This document shows positions 12,543 through 54,771 of a stretch of 64,000 bases of DNA, in pieces; positions within the stretch are counted from its first letter, which is position 1; each line of letters starts with the position of its first letter. The position numbers and the translations under genes were made by a program. Below the pieces are notes generated by a model that worked only from the letters and a program-made list of their open reading frames with translations, was not told where the DNA came from and ran no database searches. The DNA is from a virus, in the UHGV virus genome UHGV-0038492. The stretch is one strand, 5' to 3'.

Positions 12543-13676
12543 ATGTCAACGTTAGATAGCGACTTAGAAGTGCTTTGTGACGATTACGACCGACTCGTAG
12601 CGTTAGAATCCATTGGAGTAAAAGACAATTATCCGGCTATCGTTGCTATCCGTAAACGTTGGCTTTTGGATGATGTGGTTGTTGCGTCAGAGTCTGCGGC
12701 CATGATGCACCGTGCACAGTTTTTGTCAGACACGGAACCTGATAAAGGGATAGGCAAAGCGGCGGCACGACTCACCGGACGTGCGGTTCGTGGCGTAAGT
12801 CGGGTAGCAGGACGTGCTGCCAGTGCAGGTGCAAAAGCATCGGCGAACTTCGCAGGTAAACATTCCAAACAACTTGCTTTACGTTTTGTGGATTTTGCTG
12901 AGGCTGCGGGTAAAGAAGTCATTAAGGAATTAAAAGAAGCGACGTCTAAAGCGACGACCTTAGAGCGCAAACTGCAAAAGTTAAATGCACGTCTAAATTT
13001 AATCGGTGACAAAGACACCTTAAAACCGGTTGACTGCGACACGGGAAGCTGGACGACCAAAGTTTGTTTAGAAGACAAACCTAACGTAAAAGCGTGTATT
13101 GAGTTCAGTAAGAACCTGAACGCAATGGATGCGATGGTCAACGAGTATACCGTTAAAACGCGCACCATTATCGGTAAGAGCAAGAAAGTTACTGAGAGTG
13201 GCTTGGAGAAAGTAGGTCGCTCAACGAACTGGGCGATTAAACGTAGTGCAGGGCTGTTCGGTATTATCGATCCGTTTAAAACGGTGAAAGCGTATCCGTG
13301 GCCAGGTAACGTGGTGGTCGTTGAACACGACAACGGTAAGATTGAGTGGGCGATTGCCCGTGATGGTGATTTTGGCCACTCAATCAAATCTCTGAACTTA
13401 CACGAAATCGGTTCGGCTCTCGAAGCCGTTGAAAAAATTATCCGAGCTTTACGTCAGCGTGGTACGAAGCGACGTAGCGTTGGTTATACCGGTATTTACG
13501 ATGAAGTTCAGCGAATGAAAAAAGAGCTGAAGTCGTTAGACGGTCGTGAGTTACGCGATGCTACCGTTCGGTATAAGAACGCACTGCGTTTAGAAGATGC
13601 GTTTACTACCTCGTTAGTGCGTGTTGCGGAAGGCTTACTGGAATGGTGCAGGTTGTCGCTGATTGAGGTTAAATAA
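12543..13676 (+). CDS. hypothetical protein (377 aa)
   Basis: long ORF in an operon-like run. Confidence 0.6.
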   Translation: MSTLDSDLEVLCDDYDRLVALESIGVKDNYPAIVAIRKRWLLDDVVVASESAAMMHRAQFLSDTEPDKGIGKAAARLTGRAVRGVSRVAGRAASAGAKASANFAGKHSKQLALRFVDFAEAAGKEVIKELKEATSKATTLERKLQKLNARLNLIGDKDTLKPVDCDTGSWTTKVCLEDKPNVKACIEFSKNLNAMDAMVNEYTVKTRTIIGKSKKVTESGLEKVGRSTNWAIKRSAGLFGIIDPFKTVKAYPWPGNVVVVEHDNGKIEWAIARDGDFGHSIKSLNLHEIGSALEAVEKIIRALRQRGTKRRSVGYTGIYDEVQRMKKELKSLDGRELRDATVRYKNALRLEDAFTTSLVRVAEGLLEWCRLSLIEVK

Positions 13677-26664: not shown

Positions 26665-27228
26665 GTGGCCACATCTTACGTACCTGATTTGAGTCTGACC
26701 TCAGCAGAGCTAGTGGTCGCTTTAATCAATCATGATAACGGGTTACAGCTTACACTAAACGAAATCCGTATTAGCGGAACTGTAACAAACCCATCCCCAA
26801 CAACTTCGCGACGTAACACTATCACCGAAATCAGTAAAATCAGAAAACCAGATGGTGCGTCTGTTGTGGTTTACTACGACAGACTTGACGCCGATGAGGT
26901 ATTAACGTCCGAACCTATTTTGATTTCGTTAGACGGTACCGAAGCGAACATTCGTGATGTGCTTAGTGTTGTAAATGAATACTGCGGTACGAATTTACAA
27001 CCTGAGGACTTACGTGCCTCAGATATTACTTCAGGTAATGATCCTATTGCTATTAACGTTGCTGACGATTCTCCTGCCTGGATGAATGCGTTTATGGTGA
27101 CGTTGTTTGATAAAACCGAACGTGCGTTAGCGAACGAAGAAGATGAAATCTTCTGCATCGGTGACGATAGCGTTCTTACATTCGAGGTTACAGATGGCGA
27201 CAGCACTGAAGAAGACGAGACTCCATGA
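26665..27228 (+). CDS. tail-fibre-associated protein, member of a six-gene paralog family (paralog of 36829..37341)
   Basis: GTG start after GGAGGG; N-terminus PDLSLTS...NHD and C-terminal NEYCGTNLQPEDL shared with 36829. Confidence 0.6.
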   Translation: MATSYVPDLSLTSAELVVALINHDNGLQLTLNEIRISGTVTNPSPTTSRRNTITEISKIRKPDGASVVVYYDRLDADEVLTSEPILISLDGTEANIRDVLSVVNEYCGTNLQPEDLRASDITSGNDPIAINVADDSPAWMNAFMVTLFDKTERALANEEDEIFCIGDDSVLTFEVTDGDSTEEDETP

Positions 27229-27655
27229 GCTCGAAAGCTACGCAGGCACACCCCAAGGCGGGGTACTGCTGTATAGCAAAGACAATAAAGAATATAAAAT
27301 TGATGTTGATAAGTTAGCCCCGGTTGCGACAGTCACCACGGTTAACGGTTCGAATAATGCCGCCACGTTGGATTTCAATACCAGCACTGACATTATTCTG
27401 GTGTTAAACGATCCTAACACTACAGTGACGTTCGCAGCCCTTACCAACGTTGCAGAAAATACCCGTTTCGAAGTAATGCTAACGATTAAGCAAGGAACAG
27501 GGGCGAATAAAGTAACCTGGCCTGAAAACGTTAAATGGCCTCACGGTGCACAACCGGTTTTATCCTACGCGGCAAATGCGGAAGACACTCTGTCGCTTTA
27601 TACCCTTGATGGGGGTGCCACCTGGAAAGGTTCTCTTCTTGCAGCGGGTTACTAA
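27194..27655 (+). CDS. short fibre protein carrying the conserved fibre N-terminal domain
   Basis: N-terminus LKKTRLHELESYAGTPQGGVLLYSKDNKEYK matches the N-termini of 30743 and 37344. Confidence 0.55.
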   Translation: MATALKKTRLHELESYAGTPQGGVLLYSKDNKEYKIDVDKLAPVATVTTVNGSNNAATLDFNTSTDIILVLNDPNTTVTFAALTNVAENTRFEVMLTIKQGTGANKVTWPENVKWPHGAQPVLSYAANAEDTLSLYTLDGGATWKGSLLAAGY

Positions 27656-30742: not shown

Positions 30743-33700
30743 ATGGCAAAAGCGGTAAAGAAAATACGATTACATAATCTTAGACCATATACCGGTGATA
30801 TCGGTGAAGGCGTTTTACTTTTCTCCAAGGATGAGAAAGATTATAAGTTACCAGTCCGTGAGATCATTGCGGATATTGACACCGTACGTAATGCGGTGGC
30901 TGAAGCACAGACAGCAGCAACACAATCACAAGAAGCTGCAACTCAGGCTACACAAGCAAAGAATTTAGCAGAAACAGCAAAACAACAAACTGACACCGTT
31001 GCAGCTACGGTTGCTCAACAAGCGCAAACTGTAACCGAAAAAGCAACTGAAGTCGGTACAAAACACACTGAAGTGTTAGCCGCGAAAACTGCGGTAGACG
31101 AAGTATCAGTGTCGGTGAATGAGAAGGCTCAAGCTGTCGCCGCAAGCGAACAATCGGTGACGGCTGCTGCGGCTGATGTAACTAAGAAAGCAGAAACGGT
31201 TGCGCAACAGGCCGGACAAGTTCAACAGACGGCTACCAGCGTCGCAAATACTGCGGCATCAGTTGAGGCCAGTAAAGGTGCAGTGGAGAAAATTGCTGCG
31301 CAGGTCACGAAAGATAAAGAAACGTCGGAGGGCGCGGCTACCCGCTCAGAAGCGGCCGCACAACGTGCTGAGAAAATCGCCGCCCAAGGCTTAGTTGACG
31401 CTAGTACGATCGGTAAAGGCATCGTTAAACTTAACGATACCCTGACTAGTGAATCCGTGACGGAGGCTGCCACGCCGTCCACGGTTAAACAGCTGAACGA
31501 CGAATTACAGTTAAAAGCCAATAAACATTCGCCGAATTTTACGGGTAAACCGACATCCCCAAAACCGCCGAAGGACTCGAATGACACGAGCATCTCCACA
31601 ACGTCCTGGGTGCGTGACGCGATTGCTGAATTGGTTGGTTCCTCACCCGAGACGTTAAATACCTTAGCGGAATTAGCAGAGGCGTTAGGTAATGACCCTA
31701 ACTTCGCAACAACGATCACTGAGGAGCTTGCGCAGAAGCAACCTATCAGCCCATTACTCACCGCAATCGCTGCGGTTACAAGTGCAGCAAACAAACTCCT
31801 GTATTTCACGGGCTCTAATAAAGTCGAGTTAACCGATTTTACAGAAACTGCCAGATCCTTGTTAGCGAAAGGGTCAACTGCGGATATTATTAACTTCCTG
31901 GGTTTGAAACCCACCGTTGATAAAGCAAACGGCGCACTACAGAAAAACTCTAACGGTGCTGATATCCCAAATAAAGAAACTTTTGCTCGCAACATCGGCC
32001 TATCTCCTGATACCTATCTGCGTTTCCGTGGCAAAATGCCTGTAGATGCTGATATTAACACATTTGCTCCAGATGCTAATTACACAGGAACGTGGTCTAA
32101 GTCGACATCAACCAATGCGTCGATGGCAAAACACTTCCCAGAAGACGGTGCAGTCGGTTATCTGGAAGTGTATAAAGCGGGCAACTACAGTGGCGCGCAA
32201 CGTTTTACCTGTCGTAATGGTAACGTGTACAACCGTATGTTGTCAGCCGCGTGGAACGGAACTAATGGCCCGTGGTCGCCGTGGAGAATGGTAACTACCG
32301 GTGTACGCCCGTTATCTACATCGATTGATCTGAACTCTTTAGGCGGTGCCGAACACATGGGTAACTGGCGTAACTCGTCCAGTTCGTTAGCGGTGTTTGA
32401 CAGACATTATCCTGAAGAGGGCGGTGGCGCTCAAGGTGTTCTGGAAGTCATGGAAGGTGGTCTTTACGGACGGTTGCAGCGATACACTACGCGTCGTGGC
32501 ACAATGTATGTCCGTGGTTTGACTGCAACATGGGATTCATCAAACCCACAATGGGAAGATTGGATTCAGGTTGGTTATCAGACTGACGGTGCTTTCTTTA
32601 AAGCCAATTTTAACGATCTCGTTAAACCGGGTCGTTTCAGTGTCACTGGTCAGGCAACTAACGGCCCACTTACCGGTTCTTCTGGCGAAACCATATTAGG
32701 CGTTTGTGAAGTTACCTTACGCTTAGACGGTACAGGGGTCGAACAGAATTATACCACATACGGCACGGGTGCAGAAACTAAAGGTCGTAAATTCCAACGT
32801 ATCCGTACGGGTAACATTTGGAGCGATTGGCGTGAGGTTTTCACATCCTATTCGCTTCCGTTGGCCTTAGGTATCGGTGGGGTTGCTGCCAAGGTCGATC
32901 CGTTAGACTGGCAAACCTTCGACTTCGTTCCTGGCCAGATGATAAGCACACCGTTGAATACCATGAAAAACATTCCTGCGGGAATGGATTGGGGTGTTAT
33001 TGACGGTAACTTGGTCACTATTCTTGTAGGGGCGTCGGAGGACACCGGTACTGGTCGGAGTATGTTGGTCTGGCGTGGTACAGTGTCTACTGCTAACTAT
33101 CGCTTCTTTGCAGTACGTATCGCCGGTGAGAAGGGTAGCCGTACGATTACGCCACGACAGATGCCTGTGTTAAATGCAGCACACACTTGGGCCGAGAAAC
33201 AAACGTTCTCTAAAGGCTTAGCGGGTGAATTGACAGGTAATGCGTCAACGGCAACGAAACTGAAAACAGCCCGTTTAATCGGTGGTGTAAGTTTCGACGG
33301 CACTAGCGACATTCCACTCCCTGGTGTTAACCAGCAAGGTAATCAAAACACCACTGGGAACGCGGGAACCGCAACCAAATTACAAACGGCTCGAAACATC
33401 AACGGTGTGAAATTCGATGGCTCTAGAGACATCAATATCAACACCTTGGTAGGACGTGGACGTGTTACTGCACTGACGGGATCAAACAAAGGTACGCCTG
33501 GTATTCAGATGTACGAAGTTTACAATAACGGTTATCCGACCGCTTATGGTAACTTATTGCATTTGGGTGGTGCTACTGCGCTAGGCGAAGGCGAGTTGTT
33601 AATCGGATGGTCGGGGACGAGTGGTGCGCACGCGCCAGTTTATATTCGTAGCCGACGTGATACGGCTGACGCGCCGTGGTCAGATTGGGCACAAGTTTAT

Positions 33701-35302
33701 ACTGCCCGTGACAGCATTCCTGGCGTAAATGCCACAGGTAATCAAGATACTACCGGCAATGCCGCTACCGCGACGAAACTGAAAACCGCTCGCAGAATTG
33801 GAGGCGTTACCTTTGACGGTACTGGGGATATCAATTTACCGGGGGTTAACCAAGCCGGTAACCAGAATACGTCAGGTAATGCTGCGACAGCGACTAAACT
33901 TCAGACTGCGCGAAATATAGGCGGTGTGGCTTTTGATGGTACTAAAGACATCAGTTTACCTGGTGTAAACCAGACGGGTAATCAGTCGACTACCGGAAAC
34001 GCAGCCACGGCCACAAAGTTGCAGACAGCTCGTACCATTAACGGTATCCCATTTGACGGCACTAGAAATATATCGTTAGGGCCTGCCGATATAGGTTGCC
34101 CGGCATCACCTAGTGGTTGGTTAGAAACTGGCGCTGATGGCGCTGCAATAACTACAGCACAGCTAGTGACGTTATTGAAAAATAACGGCGCGTTTACCAC
34201 AAGATCGTGGGTTGCTCGCTGCGCATGGGCTTATGCCGCTAGTGCAAGTATACCTCATAGCGAGACGGGTTGTGGTGTTATTCCATTAGCTGGGGCTGTT
34301 ATAGAAGTGATTAGTAACGGCAACAGCACAAACAACTACACGATCCGTATAACGACCGCCACAACGACGAGCGTCTCCGGCGCACTCACTAATGCGGAGT
34401 TTATCTACGTATTTAACGGCGATACTTACTCACCAGGTTGGCGTCGCGTGTACAATACGAGAAACAAGCCAACTGCTGCGGATGTTGGGGCGTTGCCATT
34501 ATCTGGCGGTCAGTTGAATGGCGCGTTGGGTATTGGAACCACTAATGCTTTAGGTGGGAACTCCATAGTTTTAGGGGATAATGACACCGGCCTTAAGCAG
34601 AACGGGGATGGCGTTCTAGATGTTTACGCCAATAATGCTCATGTTTTACGCTTTACGAGTGGGGCTGTTCAAAGCAATAAACCTCTCAACGTTACCGGAG
34701 ATATAAGAACCAATACTTGGGTTTATGCAAATAGATATTCTATTAACAGCAACTCAGGTTCTTGGATTAGCATGAGAGACCATAACGTTATTTTTGGTCT
34801 TAATCCGGTAGGAACTAGTTCTGCTCAGGCATTGTTAAGACAAGACCATGCTGATAGGAAATTTTTTGTTGGTGGTTTAGGTAACTATCAATTCGGCTTT
34901 TACATGATAAACAACTCACGTACTGATAATGGCACCGATGCTAATGCTTATTTGCAAAACGACGGTACTTGGGTTTGTGGTGGGAACGGTAACTTTAACG
35001 ACGTTTATATACGATCTGACGCCCGGCTGAAAAGTAATTTCTCTCCAATAACTAATGCATTGGAGAAGGTAAAGGAATTGTCAGGTTTAATATACGACAA
35101 AAAGGAGAACTTTAAATCCACTAATGTTCATCGTGAGGCTGGTGTTGTAGCGCAGACCTTACAAAAAGTGTTACCTGAAGCAGTTTCTACTTATAAAGAC
35201 GCTAATGGTGAGGACGTTTTGACGGTCTCTAACTCTGCACAAATAGCTCTACTTATTGAAGCAATAAAGGAGTTGGCGGAGATAATTGAGACCAAGTTAT
35301 AA
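30743..35302 (+). CDS. long tail fibre protein with Phage_fiber_2-type repeats and a C-terminal intramolecular chaperone (S74-like) domain
   Basis: N-terminal Ala/Gln-rich coiled-coil; six GNAATATKLQTAR-x-I-x-GV-x-FDG repeats; C-terminal IRS-DARLKSNF autocleavage motif. Confidence 0.8.
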   Translation: MAKAVKKIRLHNLRPYTGDIGEGVLLFSKDEKDYKLPVREIIADIDTVRNAVAEAQTAATQSQEAATQATQAKNLAETAKQQTDTVAATVAQQAQTVTEKATEVGTKHTEVLAAKTAVDEVSVSVNEKAQAVAASEQSVTAAAADVTKKAETVAQQAGQVQQTATSVANTAASVEASKGAVEKIAAQVTKDKETSEGAATRSEAAAQRAEKIAAQGLVDASTIGKGIVKLNDTLTSESVTEAATPSTVKQLNDELQLKANKHSPNFTGKPTSPKPPKDSNDTSISTTSWVRDAIAELVGSSPETLNTLAELAEALGNDPNFATTITEELAQKQPISPLLTAIAAVTSAANKLLYFTGSNKVELTDFTETARSLLAKGSTADIINFLGLKPTVDKANGALQKNSNGADIPNKETFARNIGLSPDTYLRFRGKMPVDADINTFAPDANYTGTWSKSTSTNASMAKHFPEDGAVGYLEVYKAGNYSGAQRFTCRNGNVYNRMLSAAWNGTNGPWSPWRMVTTGVRPLSTSIDLNSLGGAEHMGNWRNSSSSLAVFDRHYPEEGGGAQGVLEVMEGGLYGRLQRYTTRRGTMYVRGLTATWDSSNPQWEDWIQVGYQTDGAFFKANFNDLVKPGRFSVTGQATNGPLTGSSGETILGVCEVTLRLDGTGVEQNYTTYGTGAETKGRKFQRIRTGNIWSDWREVFTSYSLPLALGIGGVAAKVDPLDWQTFDFVPGQMISTPLNTMKNIPAGMDWGVIDGNLVTILVGASEDTGTGRSMLVWRGTVSTANYRFFAVRIAGEKGSRTITPRQMPVLNAAHTWAEKQTFSKGLAGELTGNASTATKLKTARLIGGVSFDGTSDIPLPGVNQQGNQNTTGNAGTATKLQTARNINGVKFDGSRDININTLVGRGRVTALTGSNKGTPGIQMYEVYNNGYPTAYGNLLHLGGATALGEGELLIGWSGTSGAHAPVYIRSRRDTADAPWSDWAQVYTARDSIPGVNATGNQDTTGNAATATKLKTARRIGGVTFDGTGDINLPGVNQAGNQNTSGNAATATKLQTARNIGGVAFDGTKDISLPGVNQTGNQSTTGNAATATKLQTARTINGIPFDGTRNISLGPADIGCPASPSGWLETGADGAAITTAQLVTLLKNNGAFTTRSWVARCAWAYAASASIPHSETGCGVIPLAGAVIEVISNGNSTNNYTIRITTATTTSVSGALTNAEFIYVFNGDTYSPGWRRVYNTRNKPTAADVGALPLSGGQLNGALGIGTTNALGGNSIVLGDNDTGLKQNGDGVLDVYANNAHVLRFTSGAVQSNKPLNVTGDIRTNTWVYANRYSINSNSGSWISMRDHNVIFGLNPVGTSSAQALLRQDHADRKFFVGGLGNYQFGFYMINNSRTDNGTDANAYLQNDGTWVCGGNGNFNDVYIRSDARLKSNFSPITNALEKVKELSGLIYDKKENFKSTNVHREAGVVAQTLQKVLPEAVSTYKDANGEDVLTVSNSAQIALLIEAIKELAEIIETKL
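33230..33440 (+). repeat. intragenic fibre repeats (two copies)
   Basis: GNASTATKLKTARLIGGVSFDG / GNAGTATKLQTARNINGVKFDG. Confidence 0.7.
33724..34078 (+). repeat. intragenic fibre repeats (three copies)
   Basis: three consecutive ~40-aa units GNQxTxGNAATATKL(K/Q)TAR..G..FDGT.DI.LPGVNQ. Confidence 0.7.
35017..35299 (+). other. intramolecular chaperone / autoproteolytic domain at the fibre C-terminus
   Basis: S-DARLK motif at the domain start followed by ~95 residues. Confidence 0.65.
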
Positions 35303-35349
35303 TTATCAGTGAGGGGTTCCCCCTCACTGACTCACAAGTACGTTATAAG

Positions 35350-36141
35350 GTGGTTATTTTGTCTGTATCAGCGACTCCCGGATGGATTGGTTCTTCAGCA
35401 AAAGCTGAAGCTGGTAATGGTTGGATGTCTGGCGCGATGCACACACTCGGTGTGCCAGTTCCAGGCTGGATGTCGCAATTGGCGGGAAAATCAAAAGAGG
35501 CTCAGTATTCGATCGGGGCTAATCACAATTACAATAAAGATACGCTTATTAACTATTTACGTTCCATAGGCTCTACTGCTGTCGTTGTGACCATTACAGG
35601 GGATTTAGTGTCTTATAGTAGCGGGGTTCCTTGTTTAGAGTTCCCTAGCAATCTTCCAAATTCGTATATTACCCTCATCATCAATCCTGGGGTTACAGTA
35701 TACGGCAGAGGAGGCAACGGCGGTTCTAACTCACCAGGCGGTGCAGGTGGAACCGCAATACAGAACGGAATAGGAAACAGACTGCGTATAACCAACCGTG
35801 GCGCTATTGCCGGAGGCGGTGGCGGCGGTGGCGGCGGTAACAGGGGTAGACTAATATTTGGTGGTGGCGGTGGTCGCCCATTCGGTGCTGGTGGGTCTTC
35901 CTCTCATATGAGTTCCGGTGCGGCTGCTGGTACTATTTCCGCTCCTGGTAGAGGATCTGTTGGTGAGGGGTCTCTTAGTGCATATACAGGCGGTTCGGGT
36001 GGTAATGTCGGTGCTGGTGGAGGAAGATGTAATACTCATGGTAACGGTACAGAATATAACGGCGGAGCAGCTGGTGCAGCTGTTACTGGTAATGCGCCAA
36101 GATGGGACGCAGTAGGTGCAATATACGGTTCACGTGTTTAA
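35350..36141 (+). CDS. gp38-like tail-fibre tip adhesin with polyglycine motifs
   Basis: N-terminal PGWIGSSAKAEAGNGWMSGA and polyglycine blocks GGGGGGGGGN, GGGGGRPFGAGG; start uncertain (GTG 35350 or TTG 35359). Confidence 0.55.
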   Translation: MVILSVSATPGWIGSSAKAEAGNGWMSGAMHTLGVPVPGWMSQLAGKSKEAQYSIGANHNYNKDTLINYLRSIGSTAVVVTITGDLVSYSSGVPCLEFPSNLPNSYITLIINPGVTVYGRGGNGGSNSPGGAGGTAIQNGIGNRLRITNRGAIAGGGGGGGGGNRGRLIFGGGGGRPFGAGGSSSHMSSGAAAGTISAPGRGSVGEGSLSAYTGGSGGNVGAGGGRCNTHGNGTEYNGGAAGAAVTGNAPRWDAVGAIYGSRV

Positions 36142-36157
36142 TTAAAAAGGAGGGTAG

Positions 36158-36670
36158 ATGGGGGTAGCGTCAGGATGGGTCGGATCTTCAGCTAAGAATG
36201 AAACTGGCCAACAATGGATGAGCGCTGCGGGTAGTAAATTAGGATTGGGTAGACCTTTTATGATGAGCCAAATGGTAGGCAAGTCCGTAGGTTGCAAAAT
36301 AGCAACAGCTTATTATAAAACGTCAAATACTGATAAAGTAGAGAACTGGGGTGCTGTCGGAGCCGATTGGCCGTTGGTAGATAAGAACAAAGGAACGCTT
36401 TCTGGTGCCTCGAACTGTGGCTTAGGACGTTTAGTGGGGATCGTACTTACGCAAGCTCACTACATTTCTGGTGTTCCACCCACTGCGGCTTTATACATCG
36501 CAGGAGGAAGGGCAAGTAATATTACAGTAACAGTTGGTGGTGTTTCGCAAGCATTTACTTACGATAGTGTTATTAACGGTTTTCACTATTATTGGCAAGG
36601 AACGCCTAGTTCGGCCTTTATAGCGGCAATGAAGAAGACGGGTGTTACACAAGATTTGAAAGTTAGCTAA
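36158..36670 (+). CDS. gp38-like N-terminal domain protein (adhesin/chaperone paralog lacking polyglycine blocks)
   Basis: N-terminus GWVGSSAKNETGQQWMSAA parallels 35350; AAGGAGGG upstream of ATG. Confidence 0.5.
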   Translation: MGVASGWVGSSAKNETGQQWMSAAGSKLGLGRPFMMSQMVGKSVGCKIATAYYKTSNTDKVENWGAVGADWPLVDKNKGTLSGASNCGLGRLVGIVLTQAHYISGVPPTAALYIAGGRASNITVTVGGVSQAFTYDSVINGFHYYWQGTPSSAFIAAMKKTGVTQDLKVS

Positions 36671-36828: not shown

Positions 36829-37341
36829 GTGGAACAATTCACGCCAGATTTGTCGTTAACTTCACTTAACATGGTTATTTCACTGGTTAACCATGACCTC
36901 CAGCTTGACTTGCAAGAGAACGAGGTTGAAGTCAGCGACGTAAAGACCAGTAACGAAATGGATCGTGACACCACTGCTGTTGTAAAGATAAAACGTCCCG
37001 GTAACAGAACGTTACAAATCTATTACAACCGTTTAACCGCAGAACGTTGGTTAAACCAGCAACCTATTCTGGTGCAAGTAACTGGAGAGGGGTTTAACAC
37101 ACACGATTTAATCGATGCGATTAACGCAGCCTGTGGTAGTAACCTGCAACCCGAAGATCTTCAGGACGATTCATTTACAGTAGGAAAAGACGCTGTAACG
37201 TTACAGGTATCACCTAACTCCCTAAGTTATAAAGGCCAATTCTCTGTTTTGGTTTTTGGTAACGGCGAAGAGGCCGCAGTAACAAAAGATGACAACCTAA
37301 TCGTTACCGCAGATAATCGCGTCTTAACCTTTGGAGGTTAA
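36829..37341 (+). CDS. tail-fibre-associated protein, paralog of 26665..27228
   Basis: GTG start after AGGAGGT; shared PDLSLTS and NAACGSNLQPEDL motifs. Confidence 0.6.
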   Translation: MEQFTPDLSLTSLNMVISLVNHDLQLDLQENEVEVSDVKTSNEMDRDTTAVVKIKRPGNRTLQIYYNRLTAERWLNQQPILVQVTGEGFNTHDLIDAINAACGSNLQPEDLQDDSFTVGKDAVTLQVSPNSLSYKGQFSVLVFGNGEEAAVTKDDNLIVTADNRVLTFGG

Positions 37342-37343
37342 CA

Positions 37344-37964
37344 GTGGCTGAACTGGTAGGAAAGGTACGCATTCACGAGCTACCGTCACTTTCAGAAGAC
37401 ATTACTGGTGTGGTGGTGTTAGCGTCTAAGGAACAAACCGAATACCAACTCCCGATTGAGAATTTAGGGGGTGGTGAGGTTACAGTGAGTCCGTCAGCGA
37501 ATAACATCCTTAAGTCTAACAGCGATGGACTGTTTGTTGATGGCGCACATCCTATTGTACCGAAAATGGATGCAAAAACCTTATCGGGAAATATGGTGGT
37601 AGAAAAAACGCTGACAGGTGGTGCGGTAATCTGCAAAACAACGGTTGACGTTAATAATAGGCTGGGGATTTCGCAATTATCTGGGGTGTCAATTTATAGC
37701 CAGTGCCTGCTGGAAAATAAATTGGTTTACCTGGCAGAAGACGGCAGTATTATTGATGCGTACTTCTACATTAGTAATACAAAGAACACGGCCAGTACAA
37801 TAACCCACACCATTCGGGTTGTCTTAGCGAAAGTACCTTCTAAAGTTGTCGATATCACCGATTTATCTGAAACTGAGGTGCAGTATCAGGATGCTAATTT
37901 GCCTGTTAAGATCGTTATTAAGCATCTTACAGGGACAACACTTTCCCAGAACGGAATGAAATAA
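37344..37964 (+). CDS. short fibre protein with the conserved fibre N-terminal domain
   Basis: N-terminus VGKVRIHELPSLSEDITGVVVLASKEQTEYQ; GTG start after GGAGG. Confidence 0.55.
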   Translation: MAELVGKVRIHELPSLSEDITGVVVLASKEQTEYQLPIENLGGGEVTVSPSANNILKSNSDGLFVDGAHPIVPKMDAKTLSGNMVVEKTLTGGAVICKTTVDVNNRLGISQLSGVSIYSQCLLENKLVYLAEDGSIIDAYFYISNTKNTASTITHTIRVVLAKVPSKVVDITDLSETEVQYQDANLPVKIVIKHLTGTTLSQNGMK

Positions 37965-37969
37965 GTTAT

Positions 37970-38016
37970 AGGTAGTAGGGGCTAAGCCCCTACTACCTTT
38001 CTTTTTTTTTATTTTT
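37970..38016 (+). terminator. intrinsic terminator
   Basis: hairpin ggtagtagggg-ctaa-gcccctactacc plus long T-run. Confidence 0.7.
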
Positions 38017-52031: not shown

Positions 52032-52579
52032 TCATCGTCTCCTTTAATCAATCCTAATTCGATTAACAGTTCAAAATCGATATGACGGAATCTTGTATCA
52101 AAATCCGATTCCCAATCGATGCGGATACCCTGGCACTCTTCTGATGTTAGCTCGGGAAAAATTACGGTATTAAATTTCTCACGCTCATCGTAAAACCCAT
52201 CAATCGGTGAGTTCGGGTTACGCGTTGCGAAAATAGTAATACCAGGGAAAGATAATGCTAACACAGTGATAGATTCTGCGCTGGGCTCACTTAAAGAGCG
52301 GCGTAGAAACGCAATTTTGTGGCGTGGGAAGTCCAATACGCGTTCTTCAAACCCTGGATTACGTTTTTCGATTTCCGCTACCGACAGGTCAGTAAGTTCG
52401 GTGCAATACATTGGGATGATTACAGTCACGCCGTGGCGAATCAGTAAACGTTTTACGTCATCGGTAAAATCTTCGCCGTTAATCATCACGTAACAACCGA
52501 ACAGCTTACTGTTTTCCAGAAACTTATCCAGAAGTCGAATTCTACGCTTCGTAATATTGTTGATCAGAATTGGTTTCAT
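52007..52579 (-). CDS. hypothetical protein in the radical-SAM cluster
   Basis: 190-codon ORF; AAGAGAAG upstream of ATG; start overlaps the upstream gene. Confidence 0.5.
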   Translation of the reverse strand: MKPILINNITKRRIRLLDKFLENSKLFGCYVMINGEDFTDDVKRLLIRHGVTVIIPMYCTELTDLSVAEIEKRNPGFEERVLDFPRHKIAFLRRSLSEPSAESITVLALSFPGITIFATRNPNSPIDGFYDEREKFNTVIFPELTSEECQGIRIDWESDFDTRFRHIDFELLIELGLIKGDDECLLLVKA

Positions 52580-53864
52580 CTTTGGCTTCTCTTAATAATT
52601 TTTCCTTTTGGGCGCGTTCACGAACACAGCGTGGGCAATAACACATACTCGTGTCGTGGAACGCTTTTGCTGACGTCGTACCCATCTTCTGTTTCCAGTA
52701 TTCCGCCACCATCAGTTTCGCTGTCGTCCACCCGCACTGACGTCGCTCAGCGTGATACGCTTTACGGTCTTCCAGTGTCCCTTCACCGTTTTCGTAAGAA
52801 GCCGCAGCGCAGCTACCACAAGCGTGTTTCATCGGACAACCTAAGCACGTCTCTGGATAGTTGGTATATTGTGTTTGAATCTCTTCTAACAATTTACCGT
52901 TGTCCAGGCTGACGAATTCCCGACCTACCAACTCAAATACCGCAGAACGTGATGTTACGGTTGACATAAAGCGATTGCAACCGAAGATCTTACGGTCAAA
53001 ACCTAAACACGTCATGTGTGTTAATGTCCCACAGAACGGACGTAAACGTTCTGGGTTCAACCGCACCGTGTCATTATAAAGTAATTGATCACGCCAGTTC
53101 GGTTCCCAAATCGTATCGAAATCCAACCCTTCTGGGATGATGTGCGATAAGATATTACGTGGGTTGGTGTGTAATCCTTTCTCGACCCAATAATCAATCA
53201 CATCCATCATCTGCAATGCAATTGAAGTAGCCATCCCACGTGGCATAATGTCTTCGAAGGTTACGTTGCCGGAGATAGTTCCGCCACCAGTAATATCAAT
53301 TAATGACTTCATTCCGGCAGCATAGTACGGTAACGTTTCTAACGTAAAGGTCGCCTTTACGCCAAGCTCTGCAATGCCAACCTCTTTTAAGTAGTTATAG
53401 CCTCGTACTGCGGCTTCGTAAGAACCCTGGCGCGTCGTTGTAAAGATACGATAACGGTCATGGGACTCAGGTAAGCCGTCAATTGAAACCCCAACCGAAA
53501 GTTTGTCTTTCCAACGCTCTACGATCTCACGGTTCAACGGGCGATCTAACAACGTCCCGTTTGTGGAAATACTAAACATAAACGGCCGATTATGTTCTTT
53601 ACACAACTGCTCGGCGGTTTCAAATGCAGCCAGCAGCAACTTAGGCTGCATGAACGGTTCACCACCGATAATGTCAATAATAACTTCAACATTCGGTTCG
53701 TTTTTATCGCGTTCAAAACAGGCGTGCAAGAAATCAACAATATCTGCCGCTTTGTTGTTACGCGGGTACTTACGTTCGTAACAATATTCGCAGTCCAGGT
53801 TACACGAAAGGTTCGTTACAATCTGATACGTTAGCTGCTTAGGGAATTCATTTACCTGACTCAT
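52542..53864 (-). CDS. radical SAM enzyme with SPASM-type C-terminal Cys-rich domain (anSME/peptide-maturase-like)
   Basis: CNLDCEYC (CxxxCxxC) at residues 21-28, GGEP SAM motif, C-terminal cysteines in CGTLTHMTC...GC and CLGCPMKHACGSC; GAGGGG upstream of ATG. Confidence 0.8.
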   Translation of the reverse strand: MSQVNEFPKQLTYQIVTNLSCNLDCEYCYERKYPRNNKAADIVDFLHACFERDKNEPNVEVIIDIIGGEPFMQPKLLLAAFETAEQLCKEHNRPFMFSISTNGTLLDRPLNREIVERWKDKLSVGVSIDGLPESHDRYRIFTTTRQGSYEAAVRGYNYLKEVGIAELGVKATFTLETLPYYAAGMKSLIDITGGGTISGNVTFEDIMPRGMATSIALQMMDVIDYWVEKGLHTNPRNILSHIIPEGLDFDTIWEPNWRDQLLYNDTVRLNPERLRPFCGTLTHMTCLGFDRKIFGCNRFMSTVTSRSAVFELVGREFVSLDNGKLLEEIQTQYTNYPETCLGCPMKHACGSCAAASYENGEGTLEDRKAYHAERRQCGWTTAKLMVAEYWKQKMGTTSAKAFHDTSMCYCPRCVRERAQKEKLLREAKDETNSDQQYYEA

Positions 53865-54771
53865 TTGCCGCCCCTCTATTACGACCTGCCATCACTACGC
53901 GACGAATATATTCGTACGCCTCTACACCGATAGAGAAGGCCAGTTGGTTACACCCGGATTCCAGTACGTTAGGTGCGTTCTGGAGCTGGTGCTCACCACC
54001 GTCTGCATTAATCCAGAGACTTTCGCTGCAAACGTTACACCCTTCTTCAAACACTTTACTTACCGTAAAACCACATTCACGACTGTTTACTACATTCAGT
54101 CGTTCAATGTTGTCCTGAACCCGATAGTAGCCGTAAATAAAGTTCATGACGTGGTCAGGTGATAAAGGCTTTGGCATTTTCGCATCTAAGAGTAACGTCA
54201 TTGCTCGGAAACCGTAATGGTAAATCGCGCTGTGCAGCTGAATAATATCTTCATGCCAACGTTTATCCCCCAAACGGTCCCGTGTCAAGACACCCCAAGT
54301 CTGGACATTATCCAGCTCGTAGATCGTTTCCAGTGCTTCGTAACAGCCTTCGTCAATAAAGCGCATAAATGGACGCTCAGACGACTTAAACCCATCGATG
54401 CTAACGTAGACATTGTCAAACTGTTTTAGCAACGGGAGATGCGATTTACGCATCTTTAAGCCATTGGTATACAACTGGTGTTTGAGTTCTGGACGAATCA
54501 CTTTTAATTCGTCAACAAACGCCTCAATTTTACGGGTTGCCAATAGTGGCTCACCACCCGTCCACTGAATTTCGGTAATGGTTGGATTAGCTTCCAGCGC
54601 TTCCAAAATTCGCTCACGTTGAAACTCTCGCGGAGAATCTTCACGATTCATGTAATAGGCTCCACCGCAGAAGCTACAATCCAGGTTACACTTGGACGTA
54701 GCGACTACGGACAATACGGTGGGTTTATCGTATAAACGATTCGATAACCTTGGTTCTGCATTGGTTGTCAT
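53848..54771 (-). CDS. radical SAM enzyme (paralog, shorter Cys-containing C-terminus)
   Basis: CNLDCSFC at residues 28-35, TGGEPLL motif, C-terminal CGF...CNVC. Confidence 0.75.
   Translation of the reverse strand: MTTNAEPRLSNRLYDKPTVLSVVATSKCNLDCSFCGGAYYMNREDSPREFQRERILEALEANPTITEIQWTGGEPLLATRKIEAFVDELKVIRPELKHQLYTNGLKMRKSHLPLLKQFDNVYVSIDGFKSSERPFMRFIDEGCYEALETIYELDNVQTWGVLTRDRLGDKRWHEDIIQLHSAIYHYGFRAMTLLLDAKMPKPLSPDHVMNFIYGYYRVQDNIERLNVVNSRECGFTVSKVFEEGCNVCSESLWINADGGEHQLQNAPNVLESGCNQLAFSIGVEAYEYIRRVVMAGRNRGAANESGK

Follow-up and report, generated by a model that had tools for sequence, protein, structure and literature searches.

Which protein caps the tip of a phage tail fibre when two candidate adhesin genes follow the fibre gene? 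The question is raised by a three-gene module in a phiKZ/SPN3US-like jumbo phage, analysed here within a 64-kb window (the whole stretch of DNA under study) and alongside a complete 222-kb relative. The three open reading frames (ORFs) of an initial annotation were all present (Table 1), namely a fibre ending in an intramolecular chaperone (IMC), a polyglycine gp38 adhesin, and a smaller adhesin that begins with the same kind of attachment domain. The IMC and gp38 together are the known, textbook T2/S16 tip pathway; less ordinary is the tandem that follows the sole IMC fibre of this jumbo phage, in which the two adhesins belong to different classes. We favour, with moderate confidence, two alternative caps with homologous docking domains for one IMC fibre, most likely yielding virions of mixed specificity, so that a single type of fibre probably binds two receptors.

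Table 1. Features of the fibre/adhesin locus (window coordinates)
Feature	Position	Strand	Basis or remark
Tail fibre	30743..35302	+	1519-aa ORF; Pfam Phage_fiber_2 and Peptidase_S74; PDB matches Mu S, S16 gp37
Pre-cleavage motif GNGNFNDVYIR	34982..35014	+	Last 11 residues of predicted mature fibre, ending R1424
IMC (Peptidase_S74), aa 1425-1519	35015..35302	+	PF13884, E 6.8e-15; S16 gp37 IMC alignment
GC-rich 11-bp stem-loop just past fibre stop	35306..35330	+	RNA fold; no T-run after
Polyglycine gp38 adhesin, T2/S16 type	35350..36141	+	Pfam GP38 and Gp38_N, phrog_2056, 6f45_D
gp38 N-terminal attachment domain	roughly 35374-35505	+	
gp38 beta-helix and PGII sandwich, five glycine-rich blocks	35506-36138	+	
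Second adhesin, RB43-style, 170 aa	36158..36670	+	Gp38_N; phrog_1121 "tail fiber adhesin"
Small adhesin Gp38_N attachment domain	36158-36289	+	
Small adhesin C-terminal domain, ~125 aa, unrelated to that of gp38	36290-36667	+	
DUF7941 virion protein	36829..37341	+	Pfam, PHROG
206-aa protein, N-terminus resembling fibre anchor motif	37344..37964	+	N-terminal alignment
Strong intrinsic-terminator-like hairpin, 13 bp then TTCTTTTTTT	37970..37998	+	Closes fibre/adhesin block

Fibre and predicted cleavage site

From its N-terminus, the fibre runs through an anchor motif, a coiled coil rich in Ala and Gln, a Phage_fiber_2 repeat, about five repeats of 40 aa each, and Mu S-like segments to the tip, with the IMC last. 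Matches in the PDB were to Mu S (5yvq, 8ju3) and S16 gp37 (6f45_A), with the fibre C-terminus aligned to the S16 gp37 crystal construct, IMC included. The Peptidase_S74 match (aa 1425 to 1481 of 1519) lay at the extreme C-terminus and exceeded the curated cutoff (55.6 bits versus 22), and the IMC was 44.7% identical to the C-terminus of T6 gp37, which bears out the self-cleaving chaperone domain proposed initially, with cleavage itself as a prediction. The sequence around the site (...NFNDVYIR-SDARLKSNF...) carried the signature S-D-x-R-x-K as S1425-D-A-R-L-K1430 (Ser codon, 35015 to 35017; Lys five residues past the Ser). At SDARLK, we take the Ser to be the nucleophile and the Lys to complete the dyad, an assignment presumably that of MEROPS S74 and Schulz 2010.

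Cleavage had initially been placed after the Ser. By homology to the sites of S16 (DLNVS^SDRRIKK) and the fPS phages (DVYIR^SDGRLKI) (PMC7917993), the predicted autocleavage falls before it, between R1424 and S1425, and would release the IMC. The 11 residues that precede the cut are a candidate docking element for Gp38_N, judging from sequence conservation: the form GNG(x)FN[DN]V[YQ]IR^SD was common to fibres partnered with polyglycine gp38, small adhesins, or both. One copy of the motif was found in the window and one in the 222-kb relative.

Two adhesins of different classes

Depending on the start codon used, gp38 begins 47 to 56 nt past the fibre stop and is 263 aa long (GTG, 35350) or 260 aa long (TTG, 35359, the start chosen by gene callers on identical metagenome contigs). 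It matched Pfam GP38 (PF05268; E, 6e-69; profile positions 1 to 218 of 218) and Gp38_N (PF21721; E, 2e-11), phrog_2056 (E, 4.5e-90), and, in the PDB, S16 gp38 (6f45_D; E, 7.5e-50 over aa 11 to 261) and 9v85_A (E, 7.3e-38), in agreement with its first identification as a polyglycine gp38 adhesin and with the structural similarity expected of one. A PGII sandwich is defined by five glycine-rich motifs (GRMs) with hypervariable segments between them (PMC12032242); five Gly blocks could be read in the window gp38, and the GRMs were conserved in the residue alignment with 6f45_D. As in S16 gp38, an N-terminal attachment domain, a beta-helix, and the PGII sandwich with its five glycine-rich blocks were present, and W12, W25, and W40 aligned with the three Trp "prong" positions of S16. 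Nucleotide identity to Krischvirus gp38 was about 80%, which implies recent exchange. Gp38 is monomeric (PMC12032242).

The small adhesin follows after a 16-nt spacer and starts at an ATG with a strong Shine-Dalgarno sequence (AAGGAGG) 5 nt ahead. Its only Pfam match was Gp38_N (aa 1 to 40; E, 1.8e-20), and 6f45_D matched aa 1 to 43 only (E, 9e-4). The Pfam and PDB scores of the three proteins lie well above what chance would give. [quoted passage not shown] It is not a truncated gp38 copy. The protein matched phrog_1121 over its full length (E, 4.3e-54; protein 1 to 169, profile 1 to 179 of 181) and was 66% identical to the ORF66 adhesin of Stx phage P13374. The attachment domains of the two window adhesins were 58% identical; the invariant columns of the Gp38_N alignment were W, G, S, G, W, A, S, and G, and where S16 and the window gp38 have their third "prong" Trp, the small adhesin has a Met (PFMM).

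The gp38 of RB43, RB42, and RB16 (Trojet et al. 2011, PMC3157838) has the same build, with about 170 to 174 aa, a T6/S16-gp38-homologous stretch of ~45 to 50 aa, and then a non-polyglycine specificity domain of ~120 aa, and its gene lies directly behind a T6-like IMC fibre. RB43 gp38 (174 aa) is a proven host-range determinant, and host-range mutations of RB43 and RB42 map to the C-domain (Q100) (PMC3157838). Identity between RB43 gp38 and the small adhesin was 38% over 123 aa (BLASTP, to residue 125; E, 2e-16), with strong similarity confined to the N-domain and weak similarity past it, and RB43-group phages were absent among the 22 phage records that matched the small adhesin C-domain (tblastn). 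The two proteins share an architecture, and their C-domains probably belong to different families. In RB43 the small type is the only adhesin, whereas in the window it stands behind a polyglycine gp38.

An AlphaFold2 model gave the small adhesin a beta-rich C-domain at moderate confidence (best pLDDT, 72.9; other four models, 47 to 51), and no solved structural relative of the model was found. An exhaustive HMMER search of 1.84 billion representative proteins with the C-domain returned only about four true clusters; multi-stretch matches P0023, P0025, and P0026 were dropped as spurious (Ig-like or NUMOD repeat proteins). The species-representative genomes of GTDB held only three distant loci and were uninformative.

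Transcription and conservation of the pair

The region from 35290 to 35365 folds stably (−26.9 kcal/mol; z, −3.8; 0 of 200 shuffles as stable), and since a T-run is absent, the stem-loop just past the fibre stop was not called an intrinsic terminator. No terminator was found between the two adhesin genes. The two genes downstream of the adhesins kept their order in relatives and are probably cotranscribed.

Of the 59 loci examined, about 50 had a Gp38_N gene directly behind an IMC-ending fibre, and among phage records bearing Gp38_N, only about 1% had two such genes. Besides the window, five jumbo contigs or records (L001, L007, L008, L034, and L035) kept the tandem of a polyglycine and a small adhesin, and the small adhesin stood behind gp38 in every shown metagenome contig reaching upstream. 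Both adhesin genes are under purifying selection, with dN/dS values of 0.10 to 0.15 for the small adhesin and 0.10 to 0.26 across the two genes, at dS up to 0.4 to 0.8. Recombination breakpoints coincided with domain borders. Relative L034 was 98 to 100% identical to the window in the fibre tip, IMC, and gp38, and its small adhesin was 93% identical in the N-domain and only 54% in the C-domain; L001, L008, and L035 had a swapped tip and IMC and retained both adhesins. The receptor-binding parts of the two adhesin genes diversified independently among relatives.

Comparison with known tips

In T2, T6, and S16, gp37 trimerises before its IMC is cut off, and this cut exposes the gp38 docking surface (PMC7917993; PMC3157838; bioRxiv 10.64898/2026.05.12.724579). 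The window shares with these phages a fibre ending in a Peptidase_S74 IMC with SDxRxK and gp38 as the next gene and, by homology, the same order of folding, cleavage, and capping. Unlike S16, the window virus is not a member of the Straboviridae, lacks the gp34-36 context, and carries a second adhesin gene after gp38; its tip body is Mu S/SSU5-like, and only the cleavage-adjacent motif resembles the fPS/T2 type. Because the window tip differs from the crystallised S16 tip, the docking geometry is extrapolated.

Elsewhere, either class occurs by itself. In the Stx2a phages P13374, phi191, and 75-02 (Oslovirus; ORF65-ORF66), ORF66 is a full-length homologue of the small adhesin behind an IMC fibre. 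The small type is the sole post-fibre adhesin in P13374 and in a Shigella sonnei SSU5-like phage-plasmid, whose protein is about 84 to 85% identical to that of the window, and polyglycine gp38 takes the same slot in Escherichia coli pCPF6. Fibre tips 78 to 79% identical to the window tip (those of SSU5 and pCPF6 among them) were paired with polyglycine gp38 (L004) or with the small adhesin (SSU5 L006, L049). Each class works alone in these settings. Whereas the window has two adhesins, the Stx2a phages and SSU5-like phage-plasmids have one per fibre, small or polyglycine; one exception is L049, an SSU5-like IMG/VR contig with both classes and two ORFs between them. Their virions are those of a podovirus or siphovirus, in contrast to the jumbo myovirus of the window.

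Two adjoining Gp38_N genes after one IMC-type gp37, as in the window, were also seen in Edwardsiella phages PEi20 and PEi26, Klebsiella phage KLB31, and Morganella phage vB_Mm5. These pairs are of a single class (two small or two polyglycine adhesins), whereas the window pair is mixed; the second copy in PEi20 is a distant homologue of the small adhesin C-domain (31% identity). The searchable literature yielded no relevant paper on tandem or duplicated gp38 and no functional study of any tandem pair, and nothing specific on jumbo phages with gp38 or on SSU5 adhesins.

Alternative explanations

The strongest competitor, which we consider unlikely, is that virions use only one adhesin, which would leave the other as redundant or as a spare cassette, for example a reservoir for host-range recombination or a gene being lost. 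SSU5-like phage-plasmids and Stx phages manage with one adhesin, recombination is known to concentrate in GRMs (PMC12032242), and a 48-aa in-frame deletion within the glycine core of the L035 gp38 hints that gp38 may be dispensable there. A spare gene fits poorly with two intact ORFs held at the low dN/dS values given above, each with a ribosome-binding site and no terminator between them, with the independent diversification of both receptor-binding parts, and with the persistence of the pair in six contigs or records from related jumbo phages and in every sampled metagenome contig reaching upstream.

It is improbable that the small adhesin caps another fibre or baseplate protein, which would give two separate receptor-binding organelles. 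The anchor motif of the fibre recurs in the ORFs at 27143..27655 and 37344..37964, which makes several fibre-like proteins in the virion probable, and the two Gp38_N genes of the L049 phage-plasmid are set apart. However, both of these ORFs lack an IMC and the tip motif, and searches with six diverse IMC queries (tblastn), three Gp38_N queries, and a regular expression for GNGxFNDVxIR found exactly one IMC/pre-cleavage motif and two Gp38_N genes in each of the two sequences covered in full, the window and the 222-kb relative. Neither held a second docking partner or IMC tip. The usual place of Gp38_N genes, directly behind IMC fibres, argues the same way.

Slightly less probable still is a role for the 170-aa protein as an assembly factor, tip-blocking cap, or regulator instead of a receptor-binding adhesin. 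Many database records do give genes of this kind the label "distal long tail fiber assembly catalyst", but the label is inherited from T4 gp38, which belongs to an unrelated family. The RB43 host-range mutations fall in a C-domain of the same architecture, no Gp38_N protein other than the 170-aa type follows the fibre in Stx phages and the Shigella phage-plasmid, and the cassette-like swap of the C-domain in L034 is the behaviour of a specificity domain. T4 gp38, Mu U, and lambda Tfa, like the window proteins, are each the product of a small gene that directly follows the fibre gene, and Mu S is homologous to part of the window fibre; these are, however, unrelated assembly-chaperone families that act in trans, a role that in the window falls to the IMC of the fibre itself. 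For either small protein, Pfam and PHROG gave no similarity to T4-type gp38 or Tfa chaperones, the only matches being GP38/Gp38_N adhesin families and unnamed PHROGs.

The initial view of the locus as an unusual mix of two normally alternative tip-maturation strategies is contradicted by both the published work and the locus survey and is very improbable, for although T4 gp38 is a trans-acting chaperone and T4 gp37 lacks an IMC, so that the two can look alternative, T2, T6, and S16 use IMC and gp38 adhesin together, cleavage creates the docking site, S16 and T6 gp37 align with the window IMC, and most Gp38_N loci show the same pairing; T2-type gp38 (an adhesin) was probably confused with the unrelated T4-type gp38 (a chaperone).

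Proposed mechanism and significance

Under the two-cap reading that we favour, the fibre would trimerise with the aid of its C-terminal IMC, which would then cut itself off and expose the tip ending in the pre-cleavage motif. A monomeric adhesin would dock there through its ~45-aa Gp38_N attachment domain, the cap being either the polyglycine-sandwich gp38, of the class that in T-even phages has outer-membrane porins as receptors, or the small RB43-style adhesin, whose C-terminal receptor-binding domain is different. With both genes functional in one block running to the terminator at 37970, the two caps would most likely compete for the same tips, because there are a single IMC fibre and one monomeric cap per trimeric tip, and virions with mixed fibres and two receptor specificities would result.

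A broader proposal is more tentative. Two structurally unrelated monomeric adhesins with interchangeable docking domains may compete for a single tip type, making each virion a stochastic two-specificity mosaic that could serve as a bet-hedging or dual-receptor device. The ratio might be set by translation signals (a weak TTG/GTG start for gp38 versus ATG and a consensus Shine-Dalgarno sequence for the small adhesin), and the arrangement may have arisen repeatedly, in jumbo phages, the SSU5-like contig L049, Kanagawavirus, and Morganella phage Mm5.

The locus places the T2/S16 module outside the Straboviridae, in a phiKZ-like jumbo phage. GNGxFNDVxIR^SD is conserved among tips that pair with adhesins of either class, which makes it a candidate for a small docking element that is portable. 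If both caps are mounted, the pair would offer a simple route to two receptor specificities on one fibre and a natural precedent for host-range engineering, in which a second Gp38_N-tagged cap would be added rather than the first replaced.

The window derives from a phiKZ/SPN3US-related jumbo phage, with a phiKZ internal head protein, large virion proteins, and a radical-SAM pair. At the nucleotide level it is ~72% identical to the SPFM phages, Proteus phage 7, and Erwinia pEa_SNUABM_29. The radical-SAM genes adjoin, and are themselves ~72% identical (nucleotide) to those of the Salmonella SPFM phages and Proteus phage 7. The closest relative, from an isolate of Enterobacter ludwigii, was a circular record of 222,441 bp deposited as a "plasmid" (NZ_CP134650.1, here L001; 76% coverage, 88.6% identity), in which gene order is that of the window. 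A 94%-identical adhesin was found on a 224,826-bp contig named Salmonella Typhimurium by NCBI. A phiKZ-like phage in isolates, held as an episome or carrier state, would be worth a look in itself.

Features of the fibre/adhesin block and of the phage backbone (window positions)
Feature	Position	Strand	Remarks
phiKZ internal head protein	12543..13676
First ORF with shared N-terminal motif	27143..27655
Shared N-terminal motif	27194..27352, 30743..30922, 37344..37466		47% and 37% identity to fibre
Fibre ORF	30743..35302	+	1519 aa
Fibre mosaic region (~40-aa repeats, Mu S-like segments)	33230..34980		~5 repeat copies; fibre aa ~830-1410
Stem-loop	35306..35330		11 bp, GC-rich; no T-run
gp38-like gene	35350..36141		263 aa from GTG
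Small adhesin gene	36158..36670		170 aa
DUF7941 virion protein	36829..37341
Last ORF with shared N-terminal motif	37344..37964
Strong terminator	37970
Radical-SAM genes (two)	52542..54771	-

The fibre and the two genes after it were present as initially annotated. The call of a C-terminal self-cleaving (intramolecular) chaperone also stood, with Peptidase_S74 matched at fibre residues 1425-1481 (Pfam; E value, 6.8e-15); the fibre C-terminus aligns both with T6 gp37 and with crystallised S16 gp37 (6f45_A), a construct that contains the SDRRIK chaperone. Cleavage had been placed after the serine. Because the known sites in S16 (DLNVS^SDRRIKK) and in fPS phages (DVYIR^SDGRLKI) (PMC7917993) align with DVYIR-SDARLKS in the window, cleavage is expected, by homology, before Ser1425. 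The initial annotation had further treated such a chaperone and a gp38 adhesin as normally alternative strategies, which is wrong: PMC7917993 and a 2026 preprint (bioRxiv 10.64898/2026.05.12.724579) are explicit against it, S16 and T6 gp37 align, and in a tblastn survey a gene with Gp38_N (the ~45-aa docking domain of these adhesins) directly followed a chaperone-ending fibre in ~50 of 59 loci. The combination is thus the rule, not the exception; the locus is the canonical T2/S16 tip-maturation pathway, and the finding as first framed is ordinary, its claim of novelty mistaken.

The fibre is a mosaic, with copies of a repeat (GN..TGNAATATKLQTAR.I.G..FDG..DI.L) and two segments homologous to phage Mu tail fibre protein S (5yvq, E value 6e-36; 8ju3, E value 1e-28) directly before the T2-like cleavage motif; NFNDVYIR-SDARLK of the window corresponds to NFDSRYVR-DVRLG in Mu S. 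A stem-loop straight after the fibre stop codon (fold of 35290-35365, -26.9 kcal/mol; z, -3.8) could attenuate transcription or stabilise mRNA, thereby helping to set the fibre-to-adhesin ratio. A motif of ~45 aa (MAxAVKKxRLHELxSYxGDIxGGVLLxSKDxKEYKLPV) is found at the N-terminus of the fibre and of two further ORFs; it probably anchors all three to the baseplate or an adaptor, implying several interchangeable receptor-binding proteins.

The first adhesin gene was confirmed as gp38 (Pfam GP38, 6e-69; Gp38_N, 2e-11), and among solved structures its product matched S16 gp38 (6f45_D; 7.5e-50; residues 11-261) and PP01 gp38 (9v85; 7.3e-38). In identical metagenome contigs its start was called at TTG 35359, giving 260 aa. 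Nucleotide identity was ~77-82% (35530..36141) to gp38 of Krischvirus (RB49, JSE, Phi1) and of ~110-kb E. coli phage-plasmids, and 89-90% over the last ~340 nt to other E. coli T-even-like phages (~166-170 kb); these identities indicate that phage lineages unrelated to one another have recently exchanged the adhesin horizontally. In L035, a 224.8-kb relative, gp38 (L035:5319-5978) has an in-frame ~48-aa deletion between two GAGG repeats that takes out the central glycine-rich core, and the small adhesin is intact; gp38 may have been knocked out naturally there, or the deletion may be an artefact of assembly.

The second gene does repeat the N-terminal domain, with Gp38_N as its sole Pfam match (1.8e-20; residues 1-40), and 6f45_D was matched over the first 43 residues only. 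Over its full length the product falls in phrog_1121 ("tail fiber adhesin"; 4.3e-54). Its architecture is that of RB43 gp38 (174 aa), in which ~50 aa homologous to T6 gp38 precede a novel ~120-aa C-terminal specificity domain where host-range mutations map (PMC3157838); the two are 38% identical over 123 aa, mainly from the N-domain (BLASTP). The adhesins annotated in Stx2a phages (P13374 ORF66, phi191, 75/02; 66% identity) and in a Shigella sonnei SSU5-like phage-plasmid (~84-85%) are homologous to it from end to end, and each is the sole adhesin after a chaperone-ending fibre. E. coli pCPF6 has a polyglycine gp38 in that slot. When 16 relatives were aligned, the N-domain (~41 aa) was invariant and the C-domains behind it were diverse; the C-domain in the window belongs to a narrow family (22 phage records; ~4 clusters among 1.84 billion representatives). 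An AlphaFold model had a beta-rich C-domain (moderate confidence) and a disordered N-domain, with no convincing relative among solved structures and resemblance among viral models to other small Gp38_N proteins only.

Gp38_N was matched at 945 places in 936 phage records, so at most ~1% of records have two such genes. The pair consists of two small adhesins in PEi20/PEi26/KLB31 and of two polyglycine adhesins in Morganella phage Mm5. The mixed pair of one polyglycine and one small adhesin is kept, in tandem, in L001, in jumbo IMG/VR contigs L007, L008, L034, and L035, and in every metagenome contig shown that has the exact 170-aa protein and reaches upstream. It appears to have arisen independently in L049, an SSU5-like IMG/VR contig (106,833 bp; L049:5983-8816), where the small adhesin directly follows the chaperone-ending fibre and the polyglycine gp38 lies ~1.4 kb beyond, with two ORFs between, one lipoprotein-like. 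A literature search found no paper analysing tandem Gp38_N pairs.

Several observations argue that both adhesins are functional and belong to one fibre. Between relatives, the small adhesin had a dN/dS of 0.10-0.15, and gp38 one of 0.19-0.26. Recombination breakpoints fall on domain borders. In L034, a stretch that starts at the fibre tip, takes in gp38, and includes the small-adhesin N-domain shares 97.5% identity with the window; the match breaks at ~36310, and the C-domain is only 54% identical. L001, L008, and L035 have another tip and chaperone (Gp34_trimer type, P13374-like chaperone) and regain homology at 35380, the start of the gp38 N-domain. Both tip types, like P13374, SSU5, pCPF6, and PEi20, end in GNG(x)FN[DN]V[YQ]IR^SD, regardless of adhesin class downstream. 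Exactly one chaperone tip and two Gp38_N genes were counted (tblastn, six chaperone and three Gp38_N queries, plus motif search) in the window and the complete 222-kb relative alike. Between the adhesin genes lie 16 nt, with a consensus Shine-Dalgarno sequence and no terminator, and a strong terminator closes the block. Finally, a gp38 adhesin caps the trimeric tip as a monomer (PMC12032242).

The locus has a further mosaic junction in L034, next to the swapped C-domain: the DUF7941 virion protein there forms the end of a ~647-codon open frame (L034:6208-8151), with an additional ~1.3 kb of sequence upstream.

In the most economical model, which we consider fairly probable, either adhesin would dock on the fibre tip after chaperone autocleavage, and we infer that the two caps would compete for the same tips. 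The remaining interest lies in the finding that a jumbo phage has a mixed-class adhesin pair behind a single chaperone-ending fibre, a new variation on an established system.
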